Source of the DNA: a virus
Length of the DNA stretch: 20,723 bases
UHGV virus genome: UHGV-0278151
Strand: one strand, 5' to 3'
Positions within the stretch are counted from its first letter, which is position 1; each line of letters starts with the position of its first letter. Made by a program: the position numbers and the translations under genes. The notes beneath the pieces are model-generated. The model had not been told where the DNA came from and did no database searches. It was given only the letters and a program-made list of their open reading frames with translations. Positions 13,851 through 20,723 of this stretch are shown one piece after another.

Positions 13851-14228
13851 GAGCGTTTATCATTAACATTTGCAGATAAGATGACGTACATCATTGAAAC
13901 GCCATTCAGCCATATACCGGCAGCATTCGTAGTTGCACTCCGTAACTCTGCGACTAAGGTTAAAAACATGGCCCTCTTTTGCCACCGGCAAATCTTCAAT
14001 GGATTTCCCCTGCCGGTTTTTTATTTTCGTCGATGCATAACATTGCATTTACATCAATAGCGGCTATTGTCATTAGTATGTTGCATCAATGCATGGGTGG
14101 TATTGGCGGTCTTCGCCGGCCGCTTCTGTGTAGCTGCTCCCTGTGACCGGTTTTTTATTTCTCACATTACAGCAACCCCTTAGAGTGAAGGGCTGCTGTA
14201 ATGCCTGTTACTCAGTAACTACCGCACC

Positions 14229-14537
14229 TTACGGTAATTTCATGAAGGCAAATACCGGACAGCCCGGATGACGAGCATCTTCTGTTGCTTCCAGCATTGA
14301 CTCACCAAACCACTCCGTCGTGGCGCGACCGTCAGCTGCTTTGTAGTGGATCAAGTACTGGTTTTCGCCATCCGCATACTGCGCACGGGCTTTAACCTCA
14401 CCCCATTCATCACTGATGCGCATCTCCACCAGTTGAGACAACTCAAACTTAAACGGAGCAGCATCAGCACCAATTACAATCGGTTTGTTTTCTGTTTTTC
14501 CATCATCGTCTCCTGATATCGAAGCCCGTCGCCGCAC
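14229..14537 (-). CDS. Hypothetical late-region protein (about 102 aa); start uncertain
   Basis: ORF between the lysis cassette and cos on the late strand. It has no in-frame ATG near its 5' end (GTG at 14535-14537 without a clear Shine-Dalgarno). A strong AGGAG+ATG lies in the +1 frame about 40 nt inside, next to an A-run. Confidence 0.5.
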   Translation of the reverse strand: MRRRASISGDDDGKTENKPIVIGADAAPFKFELSQLVEMRISDEWGEVKARAQYADGENQYLIHYKAADGRATTEWFGESMLEATEDARHPGCPVFAFMKLP

Positions 14538-14677
14538 CGGGCACTGATCAACATTTGAGTATTCGCGGCGACAGAAAGAATTTATTTTATTGAATAGCCA
14601 CTAACACAGAATTTCATGCTTTCCGGACGCTGGCGCGCCCTTCATTTTTCAGCAAAATATTCCGCTATTACAGATGA

Positions 14678-14860
14678 TCAGTTCTGCAGACACTGCCGAA
14701 CGCCATCGATAAGCTGGCAGACCTGAGAAGCCGTATCGAAAAGCTGGCGCGCCTTATCCAGGCTGACGCATCCCACCAATAAAAAAGGCACCAGTATCGC
14801 TACCAGTGCCCATTTCGCCGCCGTTCGCGGCATTCTGTGTGTCCAGTGTTTTCTGCTCAT
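14678..14860 (-). CDS. Small predicted lipoprotein following the endolysin (possible outer-membrane spanin-like component)
   Basis: From the internal ATG the translation is MSRKHWTHRMPRTAAKWALVAILVPFLLVGCVSLDKARQLFDTASQVCQLIDGVRQCLQN. It has a positively charged N-terminus, a hydrophobic stretch and an LVGC lipobox, leaving a mature peptide of about 30 aa. No overlapping or adjacent inner-membrane spanin-sized ORF is present. Confidence 0.5.
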   Translation of the reverse strand: MSRKHWTHRMPRTAAKWALVAILVPFLLVGCVSLDKARQLFDTASQVCQLIDGVRQCLQN

Positions 14861-14874
14861 AACACACCTGGTTA

Positions 14875-15261
14875 TCAGCGTTTCAACTGAAAGTGAGGCC
14901 CGTCTTTCAGTGTTTTCCAGTCCCCACCCCATTCGATGGCAGTTCCCAGCTCTGCGGCAGCCTGCTTAAATGCCTGCGCGATTTTCTCGTACAGAGGCCA
15001 GTCCCATGACACCTGGCTGCCAATGTAGGCCACAACATCCACCGCATCACCTGTAAGGTGGCGGCTGTTCATGGTCTGGCTTTTCCCTGCCGCTACCAGC
15101 TGTTTCTGGCGATACTTACTGCGCAGACCTTCCGTGATACCAAAATCAACCTCCGTCAGCTCCAGCGCACGGCGAACGACAGCAACCAGCTGTGGTTTGA
15201 CGCCCTCCAGATTTTTTTCACTGCGACGGCTGAATCTGAATTTACCCGGCATCATATTCAC
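14875..15261 (-). CDS. Endolysin, peptidase M15 family (L-alanyl-D-glutamate endopeptidase type)
   Basis: About 128 aa containing NSRHLTGDAVDV and DGPHFQ, which fit the zinc-ligand motifs of M15/VanY-type phage endolysins. It directly follows two membrane-protein genes and overlaps the stop of the upstream one (GTGA/ATG). Confidence 0.8.
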   Translation of the reverse strand: MNMMPGKFRFSRRSEKNLEGVKPQLVAVVRRALELTEVDFGITEGLRSKYRQKQLVAAGKSQTMNSRHLTGDAVDVVAYIGSQVSWDWPLYEKIAQAFKQAAAELGTAIEWGGDWKTLKDGPHFQLKR

Positions 15262-15533
15262 CTCAACAATGGAAAGATTTTTGTGACGTTCCCGCGTGCG
15301 CGTATCACCAGCACGCAGAACAGCAGGTTAAAAAACACTTCCAGCCAGCCCGTTGCTAACGGGCGACCACACAGATAGCTGAGGGGCGCAAAGGCATACA
15401 GCAGCATCAGCAGCCAGGCCAGCCATGACATCAGCGGTTTGTGTCTGGAGTCACGACGACGATAAAAAAAGAGCGTCAGCACGATAACCGTGCATAACGC
15501 CACATTCAGTAATCCGGGAAGGTTACTTAACAT
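15258..15533 (-). CDS. Small multi-pass membrane protein in the lysis cassette (holin or antiholin-like)
   Basis: 91 aa with three hydrophobic segments (LLNVALCTVIVLTLFFY, LMSWLAWLLMLLYAFAPLSYL, WLEVFFNLLFCVLVI). ATG at 15531-15533 overlaps the end of the upstream membrane-protein gene, and the endolysin follows immediately. Confidence 0.6.
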   Translation of the reverse strand: MLSNLPGLLNVALCTVIVLTLFFYRRRDSRHKPLMSWLAWLLMLLYAFAPLSYLCGRPLATGWLEVFFNLLFCVLVIRARGNVTKIFPLLR

Positions 15534-15915
15534 TGCCGCCTCCTCCGCCCCGCAGGCGCGAGAACAGGCCGGACACCAGTGATGCGATATCCTGCTGGTG
15601 GATGAACGACAGAATCTTCACCGACACCACCGCCACCAGCACCGCACACAGTGCATCCGCAGATGTACCGTCATAACCTGTTTTTGATGCAATCCAGGCT
15701 GACAGTACACGCGCCCCCAGTACACCAACAATGAACGACACCAGAAAATGTGCCGCCACACGCCAGGCTGAAATCTTCTGCGGCATCGTTGCCACAAACA
15801 ACGCCCCGGCGAACGCACCAAACACAATCCCGAAATCCGTTCCGGTAAACAGCCCGAATACCGTCGCCCCGCCGAGCGCCGCAGCCGTGCCGGAACCGGA
15901 TAAGGGTTCAGACAT
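15523..15915 (-). CDS. Putative holin (multi-pass membrane protein, first gene of lysis cassette)
   Basis: From ATG at 15913-15915, which has an AGGAG Shine-Dalgarno at 15924-15928, the translation MSEPLSGSGTAAALGGATVFGLFTGTDFGIVFGAFAGALFVATMPQK... has three or four hydrophobic helices and a charged C-terminus. It sits immediately upstream of the endolysin. Confidence 0.6.
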   Translation of the reverse strand: MSEPLSGSGTAAALGGATVFGLFTGTDFGIVFGAFAGALFVATMPQKISAWRVAAHFLVSFIVGVLGARVLSAWIASKTGYDGTSADALCAVLVAVVSVKILSFIHQQDIASLVSGLFSRLRGGGGGNVK

Positions 15916-15931
15916 ACTTTTTCTCCTGTAA

Positions 15932-15955
15932 ATAAAAAAGGGCCACCAACGGCCC
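15932..15955 (-). terminator. Intrinsic terminator (minus strand) between TerB-like module and holin
   Basis: GGGCC-ACCAAC-GGCCC hairpin (15940-15955) followed on the minus strand by TTTTTTAT (15932-15939). Confidence 0.6.
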
Positions 15956-16002
15956 ATAAAAACACCCCATCAAAGGCACCCGCAGATGCCTTTTGTGTGG
16001 TG

Positions 16003-16155
16003 TTATTCAGATTTACGCAGTAAAGGCCGGAGCACGACCAGCGCCATCGCCACCAGCACACCATCTGCCAGCACCGACATCAGCCGTCCGGTGAAATCCA
16101 CCACCACTACCAGAAACAGCAGGATGGCAGCCAGCACAAGGCGCGCACTTTTCAC
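16003..16155 (-). CDS. Small two-helix membrane protein (about 50 aa), translationally coupled to upstream TerB-like gene
   Basis: GTG at 16153-16155 overlaps the TerB-like stop TGA (GTGA). The translation VKSARLVLAAILLFLVVVVDFTGRLMSVLADGVLVAMALVVLRPLLRKSE has two hydrophobic segments and charged ends. It is too short for the ORF track, which listed only ORFs of 60 aa or more. Confidence 0.45.
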   Translation of the reverse strand: MKSARLVLAAILLFLVVVVDFTGRLMSVLADGVLVAMALVVLRPLLRKSE

Positions 16156-16577
16156 AGGTACTGCTCCAGCGGCAACTGCAACGCCTGTGCAATTTTCTTG
16201 AGCTGCACTTCTTCATCAGGACCGATGCCGTCCTGGTCAGCAATATCCAGACACAGACACAGCACGTTAACTGCATCATCAGTACCGGCAACATCAGCCA
16301 GCTGACGAAGGGCTTCGGCATTGGCAGAACGCGGTGACGCTTCATAACGGGCGCGGATATTTGCACTCATTTGTGCAATCTCACCCGAGAACGGCGCAAA
16401 GGCAGGAAGTGCTGCAATGGTTTTCTCCAGCACAGCGATTTCTTTCGCATCACAGGTGCCGTCGGCGAATGCTATGGAATACGCACCCCAGACGGTCGCC
16501 TCCACTGCATCGCGGTTCTCCATCTTCTTCACTTCGGTAATGGCCTTGCGGGTTTTCTTTTTGAAAATACCAAACAT
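16152..16577 (-). CDS. TerB-like (tellurite-resistance TerB / DjlA N-domain family) protein
   Basis: 141 aa, MFGIFKKKTRKAITEVKKMENRDAVEATVWGAYSIAFADGTCDAKEIAVLEKTIAALP...DDAVNVLCLCLDIADQDGIGPDEEVQLKKIAQALQLPLEQYL. It shows the two-fold repeated pattern typical of TerB domains: a hydrophobic helix, an acidic DG motif, then E-rich and LxxIAxxL segments. Shine-Dalgarno AAGGA lies upstream of the ATG. Confidence 0.55.
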   Translation of the reverse strand: MFGIFKKKTRKAITEVKKMENRDAVEATVWGAYSIAFADGTCDAKEIAVLEKTIAALPAFAPFSGEIAQMSANIRARYEASPRSANAEALRQLADVAGTDDAVNVLCLCLDIADQDGIGPDEEVQLKKIAQALQLPLEQYL

Positions 16578-16835
16578 CGTGACTTTTCCTTTTAGTGGGT
16601 GAGCCTGCGCCCGGGGGTGACCAGCCCACAGAGAAAGTCACACTGACCATCCCGTAAGCTCACCCCTGAAAGGCTCTGTGGTTTTTGATGTGCGCCGGGC
16701 GTGGCGCAAAGAAATGAAATAAGACTTACCTGAAATTAAGGTTAATCTGAGGATTTAAACCATTTTTAAAGCTTAGTAATATCAACTCGTCTCCTGAAGG
16801 AGACAGATACTTATGATTCTTCATGGACTTTGTCC

Positions 16836-16867
16836 CGCGGCGTTAATCCGACGGCCGCGCTTTTTTT
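16836..16867 (+). terminator. Intrinsic terminator (plus strand)
   Basis: 6-bp GC stem (CGCGGC at 16836-16841 paired with GCCGCG at 16854-16859) followed by C and TTTTTTT (16861-16867). Confidence 0.55.
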
Positions 16868-16902
16868 GCGCCATATTCATCGCTAACTTACATGGCATTG
16901 CC

Positions 16903-16937
16903 ACACGGGCATTATCAGTGTCCGTGTTTCTTTTTTT
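16903..16937 (+). terminator. Second intrinsic terminator (plus strand)
   Basis: ACACGGGC...GTCCGTGT hairpin (16903-16927) followed by TTCTTTTTTT. Confidence 0.5.
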
Positions 16938-16958
16938 AGGATTCAGAATAAAAAAAAC

Positions 16959-16985
16959 CGCCCGGTGGAGGCGGTAAAGGATGTA
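16959..16985 (-). terminator. Intrinsic terminator (minus strand)
   Basis: ACCGCC-CGGTGGA-GGCGGT hairpin followed on the minus strand by a run of 8 T (plus-strand A-run at 16959-16967). Confidence 0.6.
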
Positions 16986-17242
16986 TTTCCAGGTTTTGCT
17001 TAATATATGAATAATCTCAATGTCATGGTGTTATTTACAACACCAGAATGATGCATCACCGACCCTGCCAGGAAATATAAAATCTCCGCCGAAAATGCAC
17101 CATTCTGCTGCCGTAAAAAAATCAGCACTGCGGCTACACCCGACCCCAAATCATAGCCAGAGAACAGAATGTTTTTAACAATCTACCCCCACGTAATAAA
17201 AAAATACGTCAGTGCCGTCACTATAAGGCGTATTTCAAATGT

Positions 17243-17312
<70 letters not shown>

Positions 17313-17446
17313 TGACGGTTTTATTGCCACATCCGTAACAACAGTCGACAGGAATAATATACATTCAGAATCAGCCGCCTTAGCTAATTGTGCAACCATC
17401 TGCTCTTTGCAAGTGCACTTAACGTCCTGCGCCACTTTTCAGGCAT

Positions 17447-17469
17447 AAAAAAACCCGCTCAGTGGCGGG
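17447..17469 (-). terminator. Strong intrinsic terminator (minus strand)
   Basis: CCCGC-CACTGA-GCGGG hairpin followed by TTTTTTT on the minus strand. It is near-identical to the element at 18171-18195. Confidence 0.7.
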
Positions 17470-17600
17470 ATCTTTTGATAAAAACGACAAAGGCACCATT
17501 AAGGTGCCTTTTACACAGGGGCAGCAGGCTTGTCATCACCTCATCGCTACTCCTGGCTTCCTGTTCGGAAGTCTCACAAGTCCCATCAGGGTACAGCGAC

Positions 17601-17629
17601 AGTATCAGCCAACACACTATGTGTGTCAA
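17601..17629 (-). promoter_or_regulatory. Sigma70-type promoter (TTGACA-17 bp-GATACT) with a 15-bp dyad in the spacer
   Basis: The minus strand reads aTTGACAcacatagtgtgttggctGATACT. The -35 is consensus at 17624-17629, the spacer is 17 bp, and the -10 (17601-17606) matches 4 of 6. The spacer contains the palindrome ACACACATAGTGTGT. Confidence 0.55.
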
Positions 17630-17640
17630 TATAAATTCAT

Positions 17641-17673
17641 ATCGAATTCGATAATCGTTTTCGATTATCGATA
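17641..17673. repeat. Tandem dyad-symmetric sites ATCG-N4-CGAT (x2) plus TATCGATA
   Basis: ATCGAATTCGAT (17641-17652, perfect 12-bp palindrome), ATCGTTTTCGAT (17654-17665) and TATCGATA (17666-17673). They overlap the stop codon of the PemK/MazF-like gene and lie 12 bp upstream of the -35 at 17624-17629. Confidence 0.7.
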
Positions 17674-18066
17674 CAGATAAGCCATCCCTATCCCGTGCAA
17701 TACCGCCCGTTTAATATTCTCAAACTCATCTTCCGCAATCATAGGAACAATATAATTTCGTCCCTCCCAGGTTCTGGTTTTTATGCGATCCAGTCGGCTC
17801 AATGAAACCGTCATCAACATGTCACATTTTACCCAGCAAGTAATATGCTCATTACCAGGTATGGGGTTTTCTGATAACTCATGATGGCAATCTCTGCGAG
17901 GGAGCGGTTCAGTAGTGCTTATTGGTACCACTGTTACCAATTGATTGTTGTGCCTGTTTCTGGACACGACCACCACTGGCCTGACCTTGACTATTTCCGG
18001 AACAACCATTCCCCGAAAATCACACATTAAAACAGAACGAACAGACGGCTGATACTTTAATACCAT
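17665..18066 (-). CDS. PemK/MazF-family-like protein (candidate endoribonuclease toxin), no adjacent antitoxin ORF evident
   Basis: From ATG at 18064-18066 the translation is MVLKYQPSVRSVLMCDFRGMVVPEIVKVRPVVVVSRNRHNNQLVTVVPISTTEPLP...ITCWVKCDMLMTVSLSRL...EDEFENIKRAVLHGIGM. This aligns by motif with Kid/PemK and MazF/EndoA (GDIxxVDF-like strand, VRPxxVV, N..., VxVVPITS, hhxCDQhxTIDxxRL, C-terminal helix). Confidence 0.55.
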   Translation of the reverse strand: MVLKYQPSVRSVLMCDFRGMVVPEIVKVRPVVVVSRNRHNNQLVTVVPISTTEPLPRRDCHHELSENPIPGNEHITCWVKCDMLMTVSLSRLDRIKTRTWEGRNYIVPMIAEDEFENIKRAVLHGIGMAYLYR

Positions 18067-18150
18067 AAATCTCTTTGCCTGATAATGACGACTTGTGAAC
18101 TCCACTACAAACAAAATGATTCTGCTGAACAGGCAGTTTCGCACTATACA

Positions 18151-18156
18151 TTATAA
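18151..18156 (-). promoter_or_regulatory. Consensus -10 hexamer (TATAAT) upstream of PemK/MazF-like gene; no good -35
   Basis: The minus strand reads ggTTATAATgtatagtg, 85 nt upstream of the ATG at 18066 and immediately downstream of the terminator at 18171-18193. Confidence 0.4.
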
Positions 18157-18170
18157 CCTGTTAAGCCAAC

Positions 18171-18193
18171 AAAAAAACCCGCTCGGCGGCGGG
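18171..18193 (-). terminator. Intrinsic terminator (minus strand) between the 229-aa gene and the PemK/MazF-like gene; nin-region tR-like
   Basis: CCCGC-(CGCCGA)-GCGGG hairpin followed by TTTTTTT on the minus strand. It is a direct near-repeat of the 17447-17471 element (23 of 25 bp identical). Confidence 0.65.
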
Positions 18194-18259
18194 ATTTGCT
18201 TACTTTGCCATCGAGTACAAAATCGGCAAAATATCAGATTTGCACGAAATATATGCCTT

Positions 18260-18949
18260 TTAATCTACTTTTGCAACACTTTGCTTTGAAAATGCCGTCT
18301 TTTGTTCTGAACGTGTTCTCATCACAAACAATAAAGCCTCACTATCCAGCCGGTGGAAAATGTGTTTCATTGCAACCCAGTGACCAGTAAATGTTTTGGA
18401 CCAGTTTTTTGTTGTTACTCCCGCCAGTAATGCCAGTTCCTGATATTCATAAGTTTCACGCCCAGCTAGCTCACTCTTCACATCCTGTGCCGCCAGCCAG
18501 ATTAATTTTTTCAGGCGCTCCCGTGTTTTCTCCGCAATTTTTCTGGTACCAGATTGCGCGTTAAATTCATTCCACGCCCACTGTGTTATCGCAATCTGGT
18601 GTTCCCAGCAAATGCTGCCGCTGTAACACCACAGCAACCAGGCTTTATAGTGTTCTTCAAGAGACAGAACCGCCCGTCGCCATGATGATGTCGAAAACTC
18701 AACCTGACTTACCAGAGGAATTGACGTCCTCTTTGCCAGCGATTGTTTCCCCGGGATTGGTGGATTATCCCGCGTTATCATTTTTCCGGTCACTTCATCG
18801 CGGTACCGGATTTTTTTACGCCTGTAACGCCCTGTATCAAACATGGCATTCTCCTGCCAGGCTTCAAGCTGACCTTTTGTTGCCCCACTCAAATCGGCGG
18901 TGGCAATAATGAGCTGCTCACGAACAAACTGTAAATACTGGTTATTCAT
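18260..18949 (-). CDS. nin-region protein immediately downstream of rusA; candidate late-gene antiterminator Q (assignment positional, family not verified)
   Basis: 229 aa from ATG at 18947-18949, which overlaps the rusA stop (ATGA). It occupies the last position of the early-right/nin block before the late control region. I could not recall a confident sequence match to lambda Q or any other Q family. Confidence 0.4.
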   Translation of the reverse strand: MNNQYLQFVREQLIIATADLSGATKGQLEAWQENAMFDTGRYRRKKIRYRDEVTGKMITRDNPPIPGKQSLAKRTSIPLVSQVEFSTSSWRRAVLSLEEHYKAWLLWCYSGSICWEHQIAITQWAWNEFNAQSGTRKIAEKTRERLKKLIWLAAQDVKSELAGRETYEYQELALLAGVTTKNWSKTFTGHWVAMKHIFHRLDSEALLFVMRTRSEQKTAFSKQSVAKVD

Positions 18950-19305
18950 GCGCACTCCAGCCCTGTGATTTTTATCCCCAACCGACCACCAGGAACGACC
19001 TGACCGCGCACAATATTGATTTCATCAAACTGCTCGTCGTCGATAAGCAGTCCCGCATACGTCAGCGCATCCAGCGGTGCTTTCAGAATATTGTCCAGGT
19101 CACGACGGCGCTTATCCGGCGGCTCTGCAATGATCTTTATCGCCAGCCTTCCGGACAGGTTTAATTTCAGCCGCTGCTGGCGAACAATAAGCGCCACATC
19201 ACGGCGATAACGCTCACCGGCTTTTGATACAAAATATGTGCTGCCACGACGACGCCAGTAGGTGTTCACCGTCGGCGGGTAAGGCAAAACAAACTCTATA
19301 CGCAT
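18946..19305 (-). CDS. rusA: Holliday junction resolvase RusA
   Basis: 119 aa, MRIEFVLPYPPTVNTYWRRRGSTYFVSKAGERYRRDVA...PDKRRRDLDNILKAPLDALTYAGLLIDDEQ.... It has the RusA signature (PPSVN/TY...RRDLDN...DD) and a GAGG Shine-Dalgarno before the ATG at 19303-19305. Confidence 0.85.
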   Translation of the reverse strand: MRIEFVLPYPPTVNTYWRRRGSTYFVSKAGERYRRDVALIVRQQRLKLNLSGRLAIKIIAEPPDKRRRDLDNILKAPLDALTYAGLLIDDEQFDEINIVRGQVVPGGRLGIKITGLECA

Positions 19306-19317
19306 CAGTAACCTCTT

Positions 19318-20364
19318 TTACCCGAGCACGCCGGTTGCAAAGGCGCGATCAAGAAAACGAAAAATTAAATCAATCTGGGAACCATGCTTTTCTTCGAACG
19401 CCAGCGGATCCGCATGAAGCTCGTTGTGATGCTCCCGACACAGCGGTAGCGTGAAAATATCGTGGGATTTTGTCCCTATTCCGCCCTGACCATGACCAAT
19501 CAGGTGATGGGGATCGTCGGCTGGCTTACCACAACACGCACACGGCTGTGTCTTTACCCAGCGCGTATATTTCTCATTTACCCAACGGCGACGTTTAGGT
19601 CGCTTCATGAAAGATTCCGGAGACTCCGGATCAACAGCAATGCTGACCACCGTCTTTTCCTGTGGTGGGTTTTGCTGGTGGGCGTGAGGCAGCGGCGCAA
19701 GATTTTTTGTGCGCTGCTTCAGTATGCTGATGGCGGTCTGCTCTCCCGGTACGATGTCGCTTTCGCGGTACACCGAGCGAATTTTTTCCGCACGTAACCC
19801 CAGAGAACGACGTAATACTACCTCCGGTAGTGCGTCCGCCACCTGATTGCAGACAGCCCACCAGGATAATTCAGCCAGCGATAATTCCCGCTCCTGTGTG
19901 CCATTCATTGCATGGCGCATGACGTCAATCATCCATGCTGACAGGTTTTGGTGAGCAAGTTGCTCAAGTGATTCGGAGGACTGGTCACGCAACTGGTTGT
20001 CACAGTGCCAGCACAACACCATCGCGCCAGCACCGTAACGATGTATGACGGTTTCGCTGTGATGGTAATCACCATGAGGCCACTGGCAGGATTTAATATG
20101 GCGCAACAGCCAGTCAGACAATGCACCAGCACCACCAGCAGCACGAATTACCCGTGCGTTACTGAAAAACGGCAGCAATGTTTTGTCTTCCACCAGCGGC
20201 TGGCGAGCGGCAGGAACGACCCCGGACGGCAGATTACGCATGCTTTTCGGTTCCGGCTCCACCAGTACCCGGGTATTGTGGAATACCGGCATGGATTCAC
20301 GGCCCGGCTTAACGACCACCAGCCCAAGTTCCGGTACCAGAACAGGTCGAAGTAATACCCGCAC
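19318..20364 (-). CDS. DUF968 / NinG-like nin-region protein with C-terminal Cys/His (HNH-like) motif
   Basis: About 348 aa (GTG start; an internal ATG is possible). The C-terminus reads RPKRRRWVNEKYTRWVKTQPCACCGKPADDPHHLIGHGQGG...LCREHHNELH, which resembles the lambda NinG/Rap-type Cys/His region. Confidence 0.7.
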   Translation of the reverse strand: MRVLLRPVLVPELGLVVVKPGRESMPVFHNTRVLVEPEPKSMRNLPSGVVPAARQPLVEDKTLLPFFSNARVIRAAGGAGALSDWLLRHIKSCQWPHGDYHHSETVIHRYGAGAMVLCWHCDNQLRDQSSESLEQLAHQNLSAWMIDVMRHAMNGTQERELSLAELSWWAVCNQVADALPEVVLRRSLGLRAEKIRSVYRESDIVPGEQTAISILKQRTKNLAPLPHAHQQNPPQEKTVVSIAVDPESPESFMKRPKRRRWVNEKYTRWVKTQPCACCGKPADDPHHLIGHGQGGIGTKSHDIFTLPLCREHHNELHADPLAFEEKHGSQIDLIFRFLDRAFATGVLG

Positions 20365-20365
20365 G

Positions 20366-20723
20366 TTACCTCCAGATGCGTTGCTGGAATGTACGGGACG
20401 GACGCGGTGGGCGTTCGGAGTAAGGCAATCTGACTGAGATTATCCAGTGACGGTAGTCGAGACTAAGGGCTTTCTTAACCTCGTATCCGGAGCTTAAGTT
20501 GCACGCCATTGGGTGGGTTAAGCATAAATGTAGGTCGTTGTCGATAACTTCTTTTTTTGCCCAGCGATGGATGCTGCCGTCAATGTTTCCGGCATCCACA
20601 TCACCAGGCCAGAGAGCGTAGGCCAGTTCGTCATCCAGTGTTTTCCATGTCTGCTTGTATTCGCGATGAATGGCAGCAATGACCGGGCTGATTTTTCCTG
20701 TTGAATTTTCAGTGTACTGTTGA
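20366..20723 (-). CDS. Hypothetical nin-region protein, partial (N-terminus beyond right edge of window)
   Basis: The open frame runs without stops from the window edge to TAA at 20366-20368 (...WKTLDDELAYALWPGDVDAGNIDGSIHRWAKKEVIDNDLHLCLTHPMA...QQRIWR). It is on the same strand and in the same operon-like spacing as the downstream nin genes. Confidence 0.55.
   Translation of the reverse strand, partial: QQYTENSTGKISPVIAAIHREYKQTWKTLDDELAYALWPGDVDAGNIDGSIHRWAKKEVIDNDLHLCLTHPMACNLSSGYEVKKALSLDYRHWIISVRLPYSERPPRPSRTFQQRIWR

Follow-up and report, generated by a model that had tools for sequence, protein, structure and literature searches.

Background

The closest described relatives of the locus analysed here are the tciA, tciB and tciC genes of phage P1 (P1_gp074-076, NC_005856.1), which lie among tRNA genes in the C1-controlled (C1-repressed) ban operon region. 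Their 'tellurite/colicin/cell-division' naming rests on homology only. In a genome-wide CRISPRi study of P1 all three genes were scored as non-essential (PMC10695390), and all three are transcribed during P1vir infection (bioRxiv 10.64898/2025.12.28.696737). We found no functional study of TciA, TciB or the family DUF3927, to which TciB belongs, in the searchable literature; the tciA-tciB pair is already catalogued, and its function is uncharacterised also in P1.

TerB itself is encoded in the terZABCDE tellurite-resistance operon of Klebsiella and has a solved structure (2JXU). The passage of PMC7371120 that cites Whelan et al. 1995 gives phage inhibition and colicin resistance as Ter phenotypes. 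In the membrane-anchored TerB proteins, represented by the N-terminal region of DjlA and by YebE (DUF533), the TerB-type domain is tethered to the inner membrane. With respect to RNA, the nearest comparison is with leaders that sequester the Shine-Dalgarno (SD) sequence, such as translational riboswitches, RNA thermometers and RNase III-processed phage leaders, in all of which a structured 5' UTR buries the SD. The Pas sRNAs reported near prophage TerB genes adjoin esterase and holin genes and are not located 5' of TerB.

A lambdoid-prophage version of the P1 module

The window (the whole stretch of DNA that was analysed, 20,723 nt) is 100% identical to the chromosome of E. coli SE11, where it lies within a lambdoid prophage. 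Between the Q antiterminator and the holin of this prophage are two minus-strand genes, tciA (16152..16577, ATG start, 141 aa, RefSeq WP_000466932.1) and tciB (16003..16155, GTG start, 50 aa, RefSeq WP_000833649.1). P1 came up in a nucleotide search of phage records. Judged from homology and gene arrangement, this cassette is the lambdoid-prophage version of the P1 tciA-tciB module: the two TciA proteins are 85% identical over all 141 residues, the two TciB proteins are 49% identical over 47 residues, and both phages have the same gene order with a coupled stop and start. The two versions differ in that P1 has a third small gene, tciC, that the prophage cassette does not carry, and in their surroundings, the P1 genes being placed in the C1-repressed ban region among tRNA genes and the prophage pair between Q and the holin. 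The structured leader described below is absent from P1, where the region 5' of tciA is only 52% identical to that of the prophage, which is the background level, and where the covariance model finds no match. Neither the homology to P1 tciA and tciB nor the conserved structured leader was part of the earlier note on this DNA.

Compared with Klebsiella TerB, TciA has the same size, belongs to the same fold family and carries both ADG..E motifs, but its partner is a 50-aa DUF3927 peptide instead of TerC, and the prophage genes are phage-borne. No terZ, terA, terC, terD or terE gene is found in the 19 kb around tciA-tciB. By analogy with DjlA and YebE, TciA and TciB together could be a split version of the anchored-TerB arrangement, with the anchor supplied as its own polypeptide and with no J-domain.

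Layout of the cassette

Read along the minus strand, the order of elements is a terminator, a structured leader of approximately 135 nt, tciA, tciB and tandem terminators. Both open reading frames exist exactly as the earlier note had described them. The tciA stop and the tciB start share four nucleotides (GTGA) within CTGTGA, and a GGAG motif lies 8 nt 5' of the GTG start of tciB. The upstream boundary is an intrinsic-terminator-like hairpin with a T-run (16949..16975; the stem spans 16975-16957 with 7 pairs and is followed by TTTTTTTT), which insulates the cassette from upstream transcription. The 87-nt gap between tciB and the holin holds two tandem terminator-like hairpins (15932..15993), one at 15993-15972, read from the sequence by eye as AAAGGCA..TGCCTTT, and a second at 15955-15940 with a T-run. 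The proposal that terminators flank the unit is borne out by the minus-strand hairpins and T-runs at 16975-16957 and 15955-15940. Sites of this kind are frequent in the region, with a scan returning 17 terminator-like hairpins with T-runs in 14500-19500 against 5.1 +/- 2.4 in shuffles.

The position between antiterminator and holin also agrees with the earlier description, because a Q antiterminator (18260-18955, minus strand; PF06323, E 1e-93) lies upstream and a holin that starts at 15915 (Phage_holin_8, E 6e-24) lies downstream. A PemK/MazF-like ORF is likewise located upstream of the cassette, and the first holin is followed on its 3' side by a second holin (Phage_holin_3_7) and then by an M15 endolysin. 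A promoter scan of the stretch from the upstream terminator to tciA detected no sigma-70-like site, although the scan was a simple one from which an internal promoter could escape, so that some expression in the lysogen is conceivable. Since the lysis genes on the 3' side need read-through of the cassette, and since no sigma-70-like site was detected, late transcription by Q-modified polymerase would be the simplest reading.

TciA is a TerB homologue

TciA matches the Pfam TerB family (PF05099) with 28.7 bits against a cutoff of 24.4, and this alignment covers only residues 11-57. As the match is limited to this part of the protein, more distant relatives were gathered for a fuller test through an exhaustive HMMER search, which gave 169 representatives, of which 64 were aligned. 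All 64 members of the TciA family match Pfam TerB (best E 1.6e-19), and 26 of them also match DUF533, the YebE-type membrane TerB family. The TciA-family profile aligns to the solved Klebsiella TerB (2JXU_A) with E 3.1e-27, residues 6-143 on residues 11-149. The TerB assignment made earlier from the letters alone thus stands, with a Pfam score above cutoff, a match in 64/64 family members and a profile match to 2JXU.

Structure prediction gives a similar picture. The AF2 model of TciA is all-helical (pLDDT 82.9, pTM 0.77), and a Foldseek search with it has the TerB-like structure 2H5N as top match (probability 1.00, TM 0.51), which is the sole meaningful fold match. The NMR structure 2JXU was not retrieved by Foldseek from the TciA model, so that the assignment is carried by the sequence-profile match. 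The two ADG-x5-E acidic motifs typical of TerB are present; G40, E46 and E122 are near-invariant among the 64 sequences, and D39/G40 and D114/G117 are kept in close relatives. TciA also belongs to PHROG 632 (E 4e-64), and RefSeq labels the product 'tellurite resistance TerB family protein'. These results indicate that TciA is a full-length TerB homologue, soluble and cytoplasmic. A relationship to the DjlA N-terminal region, which had been raised for profile checking, was not borne out: TciA scores 13.2 bits against the NCBIfam DjlA equivalog, for which the cutoff is 162, and no J-domain is found in its 141 aa.

TciB is a DUF3927 small membrane protein

TciB matches Pfam DUF3927 (PF13064) with 54 bits against a cutoff of 25 (E 1.6e-14), and its residues 4-48 align to positions 4-48 of the 53 positions in the profile. 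It is assigned to PHROG 1470, 'TciB-like' (E 7e-24), and the RefSeq label of the product is 'DUF3927 family protein'. Two hydrophobic segments extend over approximately residues 4-21 and 25-42, with Kyte-Doolittle 15-residue maxima of 3.16 and 2.64. The conserved residues are D20, F21, S27, D31, G32 and P44, among them a turn (D20-F-T) and, within the second helix, an acidic residue (D31-G32), and both ends of the protein are basic. From hydropathy and the positive-inside rule, we infer that TciB is a two-helix inner-membrane hairpin with both its N- and C-terminus inside. No holin family matches TciB, and DUF3927 is the sole Pfam match at E <= 1.

Among 36 close alleles, pN/pS is 0.57 in the tciB frame, whereas the two alternative frames give 0.86 and 0.99, which points to a modest degree of purifying selection on the coding frame, and the ORF is also conserved in distant phages. 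The small gene had been thought to fall below ORF-calling thresholds and to be easy to miss. This does not hold, given the DUF3927 and PHROG 1470 families, the annotation of tciB in NC_005856.1, and the NCBI pipeline, which calls tciB in hundreds of E. coli genomes; some submitter annotations do omit it (for example KY271401). Because RefSeq annotates both genes, the pair is a known module and not a hidden gene.

Pairing and distribution of tciA and tciB

In all of the 89 loci that we fetched, a TciB gene lies on the same strand 3' of tciA, and in 83 of the 89 the two genes overlap by 4 nt. The proposed translational coupling to a two-helix membrane protein is borne out by this overlap, by the GTGA arrangement in the window and by the hydropathy of TciB. 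Most of the 89 loci are from close relatives, and for this reason 13 divergent phages found by protein similarity were also examined. A TciB-type gene is located directly 3' of the TerB gene in 8 of the 13, in which TciA is 30-67% identical: two N4-like Salmonella phages, an Erwinia jumbo phage, a Pseudomonas Nickievirus, Pantoea phage LIET2, P7, phage Evi and a Klebsiella phage. The two genes thus occur together in 89/89 loci of the first set and in 8/13 divergent phages. A tblastn search with the 50-aa TciB was insensitive, returning 14 records that were mostly partial, and co-occurrence was therefore judged from the ORFs adjoining TciA matches.

In the other 5 of the 13 divergent phages no recognisable TciB is found next to the TerB gene, which implies that TerB can function without TciB. 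In one of these, Pseudomonas phage AF, the TerB gene overlaps by 4 nt with an unrelated ORF that encodes a single helix; a Vibrio phage has a TerC/Alx gene (terC) immediately upstream of its TerB homologue; and the remaining three show no obvious partner gene. Where the pair is present, TciB can be the better kept of the two proteins, as in the type-2 alleles, with 57-62% identity in TciB versus 44% in TciA. A natural fusion of tciA and tciB into one ORF also exists (P0055). Taken together, tciA and tciB form an obligate-looking, translationally coupled unit. Having tciA first, tciB coupled behind it and deep co-conservation of both, the unit resembles a stoichiometric complex and not a toxin-antitoxin pair.

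The stretch consisting of the leader and tciAB matches approximately 391 of 5426 complete E. coli genomes, at 490 places of which 171 are on plasmids. The plasmid matches listed are at about 78% identity, cover the tciA part only and are on replicons of about 97-117 kb. Strictly virulent phages (N4-like, jumbo and Pseudomonas phages) also carry the tciA-tciB pair. In lambdoid phages the cassette is found upstream of lysis cassettes annotated with differing holins and lysins: this prophage has the Phage_holin_8 type, Evi combines a lambda S-like 'lysis protein S' and a lysozyme, and in Klebsiella phage 1 LV-2017 the annotation gives a 'lytic enzyme' together with a different membrane protein. 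In P1, P7, the N4-like phages and the jumbo phages the pair is located far from the lysis genes, and its neighbours are tRNAs and genes of the early or replication type.

A conserved structured leader upstream of tciA

In an alignment of upstream regions, a non-coding block of about 135 nt located directly 5' of tciA (16578..16712, minus strand) is conserved even where TciA identity falls to about 44%. Nucleotide identity to the leader in the window is 0.71-0.87, as compared to 0.62-0.66 for the tciA coding sequence, and Erwinia jumbo phages are included in this comparison. Alignments, a covariance model and covariation define the structure of this leader, which comprises five helices, all on the minus strand. 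Hairpin H0 (16707-16692) has a fully covarying stem (GCGCC/GGCGC, ACATC/GATGT and CTGTC/GACAG) and keeps its loop as NCGCYC. Helix P1 pairs 16681-16674 with 16633-16626 (CCACAGAG:CUCUGUGG, which in jumbo phages is CCGUAGAG:CUCUACGG), and it is followed by the variable hairpin P2 (16650-16634). The loop of H0 pairs downstream in the pseudoknot PK1 (16701-16697 with 16612-16608), for which we observe the variants CGCCC:GGGCG, CGCUC:GAGCG, GGCUC:GAGCC, CGCAC:GUGCG, UGCCC:GGGCA and CUCAC:GUGAG. In the anti-SD helix PK2 (16673-16658 with 16604-16588), CCUUUCAGGGGUGAGC pairs with GCUCACCC-A-CU-A-AAAGG, and the Shine-Dalgarno sequence AAAGGA is thereby covered. One PK2 pair covaries from A:U to G:C and most of the others are invariant; RNAalifold predicted the anti-SD helix independently.

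The covariance model R1 was built from H0, P1 and P2 only, and it scores 168 bits on the window and 63-70 bits on the jumbo phages. As the pseudoknot helices are outside of the model, the alignment was not fitted to PK1 or PK2. In the alignment of 41 sequences, 97.2% of the cells in the five-helix structure are paired and compensatory changes occur in 13 of 33 pairs, a result that 0 of 500 shuffles reach, and sliding the partner strand by 1-3 columns lowers the paired fraction to 33-56%. For more distant paralogues, the covariance-model alignment (A7) had register slips in unpaired regions and no pair counts were taken from it. Instead, we used an alignment-free test of H0-loop complementarity, in which 86% of 86 distinct sequences show perfect complementarity of at least 5 nt between the loop and the downstream segment, compared with 48% of permuted pairs.

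These results indicate that the leader, with covarying helices and two pseudoknots predicted from the alignments, sequesters the SD of tciA. Similar to known SD-sequestering leaders, it is a structured 5' UTR, in which a CCUUU located further upstream pairs over a long range with the SD; it differs from them in having no Rfam match. Against the 4227 families of Rfam 15, top scores within 16540-16760 were 10.8-14.5 bits, as compared to gathering thresholds of 40-95, and over 14000-20723 the only matches with E <= 1 were a tRNA remnant and weak, sub-threshold matches to mir-983 and isrK. We found no description of the leader RNA in the searchable literature.

Two other pairings were considered and rejected. 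The single-sequence minimum free energy fold (z = -2.0) pairs GGGGUGA with a nearby UCACCCC, and this pairing is not kept in other variants. A 3-bp hairpin proposed by RNAalifold (A4, columns 106-114) competes with PK1, but its loop is too small and it has G.U where PK1 has Watson-Crick pairs.

Leader copies upstream of other genes

A pattern scan of viral contigs placed the leader 5' of tciA in 192 of 200 instances, and the rest are frameshifted tciA genes or contig ends. Among the loci fetched by protein similarity only, the leader is present in all except one group of three. A second pattern scan found at least 120 further leader stretches. Both pattern scans fixed some of the motif bases, so that invariance at these positions is partly by construction; this bias does not affect the jumbo-phage set or the protein-anchored set. 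Using the covariance model we obtained 106 matches in 97 sources, with several loci having two copies, and these copies precede genes other than tciA as well. The genes on their 3' side encode antirepressors of the P22_AR_N, ANT/KilAC, AntA and KilA-N types, HNH_3 endonucleases, T5orf172 proteins and proteins of unknown type. Genes for antirepressors and homing endonucleases are preceded by this type of leader in many phage contigs.

The leader may represent a widespread class of phage cis-regulatory RNA that was not described before, in which a double pseudoknot silences accessory genes until a trigger arrives, a proposal that we hold at slightly under an even chance. As candidate triggers, RNA processing, temperature, a ligand or a factor from the phage or its host might open the leader. 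Because it fronts such unrelated genes as TerB, antirepressors, HNH endonucleases and T5orf172, no single metabolite suggests itself as the ligand. The order of its strands resembles that of HDV-like ribozymes, on which analogy self-cleavage would be a long shot. If the class is real, phages would have a general 'gated cassette' system with tciAB as one of its cargoes, and the leader, if confirmed, would add a new and widely used post-transcriptional layer to the control of phage accessory genes, with relevance to the annotation of phage non-coding regions. With antirepressors among the genes it controls, it would also be relevant to cross-talk in prophage induction. The leader is the part of this analysis most worth following up; the reassignment to tciAB and the argument for a role in the lytic cycle also go beyond the earlier note.

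Function of the cassette

The reading that we prefer is that of a Q-dependent, leader-gated cassette in which TciA, anchored by TciB, protects or conditions the inner membrane of the infected cell; as a whole this model is tentative, and we consider it somewhat less probable than an even chance. The cassette would be transcribed only when Q-modified RNA polymerase passes the terminators on its way toward the lysis genes. The leader would then gate translation of tciA, and of tciB by coupling, with CCUUU..GGGUGAGC pairing to GCUCACCC..AAAGG so that the SD is buried. Once made, TciB would insert in the inner membrane, its two ends facing the cytoplasm, and would recruit TciA. Contact between the two proteins, and thus the anchoring of TciA at the inner membrane by TciB, is what we infer from the linkage of their genes. 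The TciA-TciB complex might condition or protect the energised inner membrane while the phage cycle is completed, with an activity similar to the Ter phenotypes of phage inhibition and resistance to pore-forming colicins, that is, superinfection exclusion or membrane protection. tciAB is an accessory and not an essential function, because the CRISPRi study of P1 scores tciA, tciB and tciC as non-essential.

A number of other explanations make use of the same observations. The cassette could be a lysogenic-conversion moron, in which tciAB of the resident prophage helps the host against tellurite, oxidative or metal stress, against colicins or through phage exclusion. It is bracketed by terminators in a slot that classically carries cargo, E. 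coli prophages commonly have the module (391/5426 genomes), and TerB is named for ter-operon phenotypes that, in the relevant passage of PMC7371120, include phage inhibition and colicin resistance. However, the interval from the upstream terminator to tciA shows no promoter-like site, an SD-sequestering leader would hold translation low, no other ter genes are nearby, and the virulent N4-like, jumbo and Pseudomonas phages keep the pair without having a lysogen to protect, all of which makes a moron unlikely. The virulent carriers bear equally on the toxin/regulator or abortive-infection pair envisaged previously, in which TciB would be a membrane-damaging effector restrained by the TerB protein. 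Small hydrophobic peptides are able to depolarise membranes, and the SD-sequestering leader found at tciA also precedes genes that may do harm, antirepressor and HNH endonuclease genes for example. This idea of a defence pair fares poorly when compared with the data, since PADLOC-DB 2.0 gives neither TciA nor TciB a family match at E <= 0.1 and strictly virulent phages carry the pair; in addition, knock-downs of tciA alone in P1 are not deleterious to the phage (PMC10695390), and the gene order and deep co-conservation suggest a stoichiometric complex. We regard it as very doubtful.

A specific link to lysis timing had also been suggested, in which TciB, or TciA and TciB together, would act like an antiholin and modulate the triggering of the holin. 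The cassette is immediately 5' of the holin in this prophage and in many lambdoid prophages, and TciB, similar to holins and antiholins, is a small membrane protein. Yet one and the same cassette precedes differently annotated lysis cassettes (in this prophage, Evi and Klebsiella phage 1 LV-2017), the copies in P1, P7, N4-like and jumbo phages are not beside lysis genes, and TciB matches no Pfam holin family, leaving a role of this kind highly improbable. A further possibility is a metal-homeostasis adaptor, in which TciA and TciB, with or in place of a TerC-family transporter, alter the handling of a metal such as Mn2+. TerC-family proteins are metal exporters, and Anantharaman et al. 2012 reportedly predicted TerB domains to be metal-binding. 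The Vibrio phage with a TerC/Alx gene directly 5' of its TerB homologue is consistent with such an adaptor, and the conserved acidic motifs of TciA and the intramembrane D31 of TciB might fit ion binding. But TciB is a two-helix protein of 50 aa without similarity to TerC, and a reason for so different phages to share an adaptor is not evident; we consider it distinctly unlikely. Each of these four explanations is thus disfavoured by the evidence listed.

The distribution of the pair argues for the preferred reading, a membrane function during phage growth. The presence of the pair in virulent phages argues for a role in lytic growth and not in host defence only. When the virulent carriers are considered with the early, repressor-controlled region that holds the pair in P1 and with the varied lysis cassettes that follow it in lambdoid phages, both a defence restricted to lysogens and a holin-specific role become unlikely. 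That temperate phages (lambdoid and P1-like) and virulent ones (N4-like, jumbo and Pseudomonas phages) share a TerB and DUF3927 unit points to a membrane function in the lytic cycle and not to defence of the lysogen.

A link between TerB and membranes is also seen in the matches of 26/64 TciA-family members to DUF533, in the terC gene that lies beside terB in the Vibrio phage, and in the Ter phenotypes.

The tciA leader RNA and its distribution

The gene for the TerB-fold protein TciA, tciA, is preceded by a conserved leader RNA some 135 nt long (16578-16712, minus strand), in which covarying helices are combined with two pseudoknots and one SD-sequestering helix. The leader has no match in Rfam, and its conservation exceeds that of the tciA coding sequence. 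Two allele types of TciA (compared in loci L224-L303 vs L011-L090), only about 44% identical, occur in E. coli prophages, one window/P1-like and the other Evi-like, and a single leader is common to both. In an Erwinia jumbo phage (L093), TciA shares 71-79% identity with the Evi-like type. The sharing of one leader by such divergent proteins, together with the closeness of the jumbo-phage protein to one of them, suggests that recombination has taken place at the leader or that the leader is under strong selection.

The same fold also occurs as paralogous copies 5' of other genes in other phage contigs (L057:6095-6239, L002:5912-6055, L004:6478-6602 and many of L304-L412), and some contigs carry two copies, as in L316 (2340-2479 and 2652-2797). 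The genes behind these copies encode antirepressors (P22_AR_N, ANT, AntA, KilA-N), HNH_3 and T5orf172 proteins, and unknowns. In some leaders (L102:2864-3009, L121, L173 and L291) the run of G that lies 3' of CCUUUCA in the J region is expanded from 4 to 11-12 residues, and in the same leaders the partners of pseudoknot PK1 or of the anti-SD helix PK2 are mismatched; possible explanations are recombination, a sequencing artefact or a tract prone to slippage.

Three records with a tciA region are assigned to non-enteric hosts: PP818812.1, 'Actinobacillus phage vB_Apl-pPE4' (L002), a Pseudomonas lundensis contig (L005) and a Kocuria sabuli contig (L010). Their proteins are 86-99% identical to TciA of the E. 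coli prophage in the window, with 95% identity at the DNA level for PP818812 alone, and the host assignment or assembly purity of these records looks doubtful.

Gene fusion and neighbouring genes

P0055 (196 aa) is a natural single ORF in which a frameshift where the two genes meet (...LEQLYLMVIKARL...) has joined a P1-type TciA to the membrane protein TciB, and Pfam detects both TerB and DUF3927 in it. In Vibrio phage vB_VpaP-MS02 (L098:378-1926) a gene for a TerC/Alx-family membrane protein lies directly upstream of the TerB homologue, and this locus has no TciB-type gene.

Other elements between Q and the holin gene

A PemK/MazF-like toxin ORF (17665-18144, minus strand; PF02452, E 8e-14), with no annotated antitoxin adjoining it, is the first gene past a promoter-like site, the putative late promoter (18276-18248), and the putative terminator that follows (18193-18178), and would therefore be expressed only under Q antitermination. 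Just downstream of Q, a weak, sub-threshold isrK-like Rfam match (18172-18243, minus strand; 19.5 bits vs a gathering score of 50) overlaps the putative tR' hairpin. Stx-type phages carry tRNA genes in the Q-to-holin interval. The interval here holds a truncated tRNA-like remnant (17254-17311, minus strand), at which ARAGORN found no intact tRNA and which matches the Rfam tRNA model at positions 8-63 of 71 (48.5 bits).
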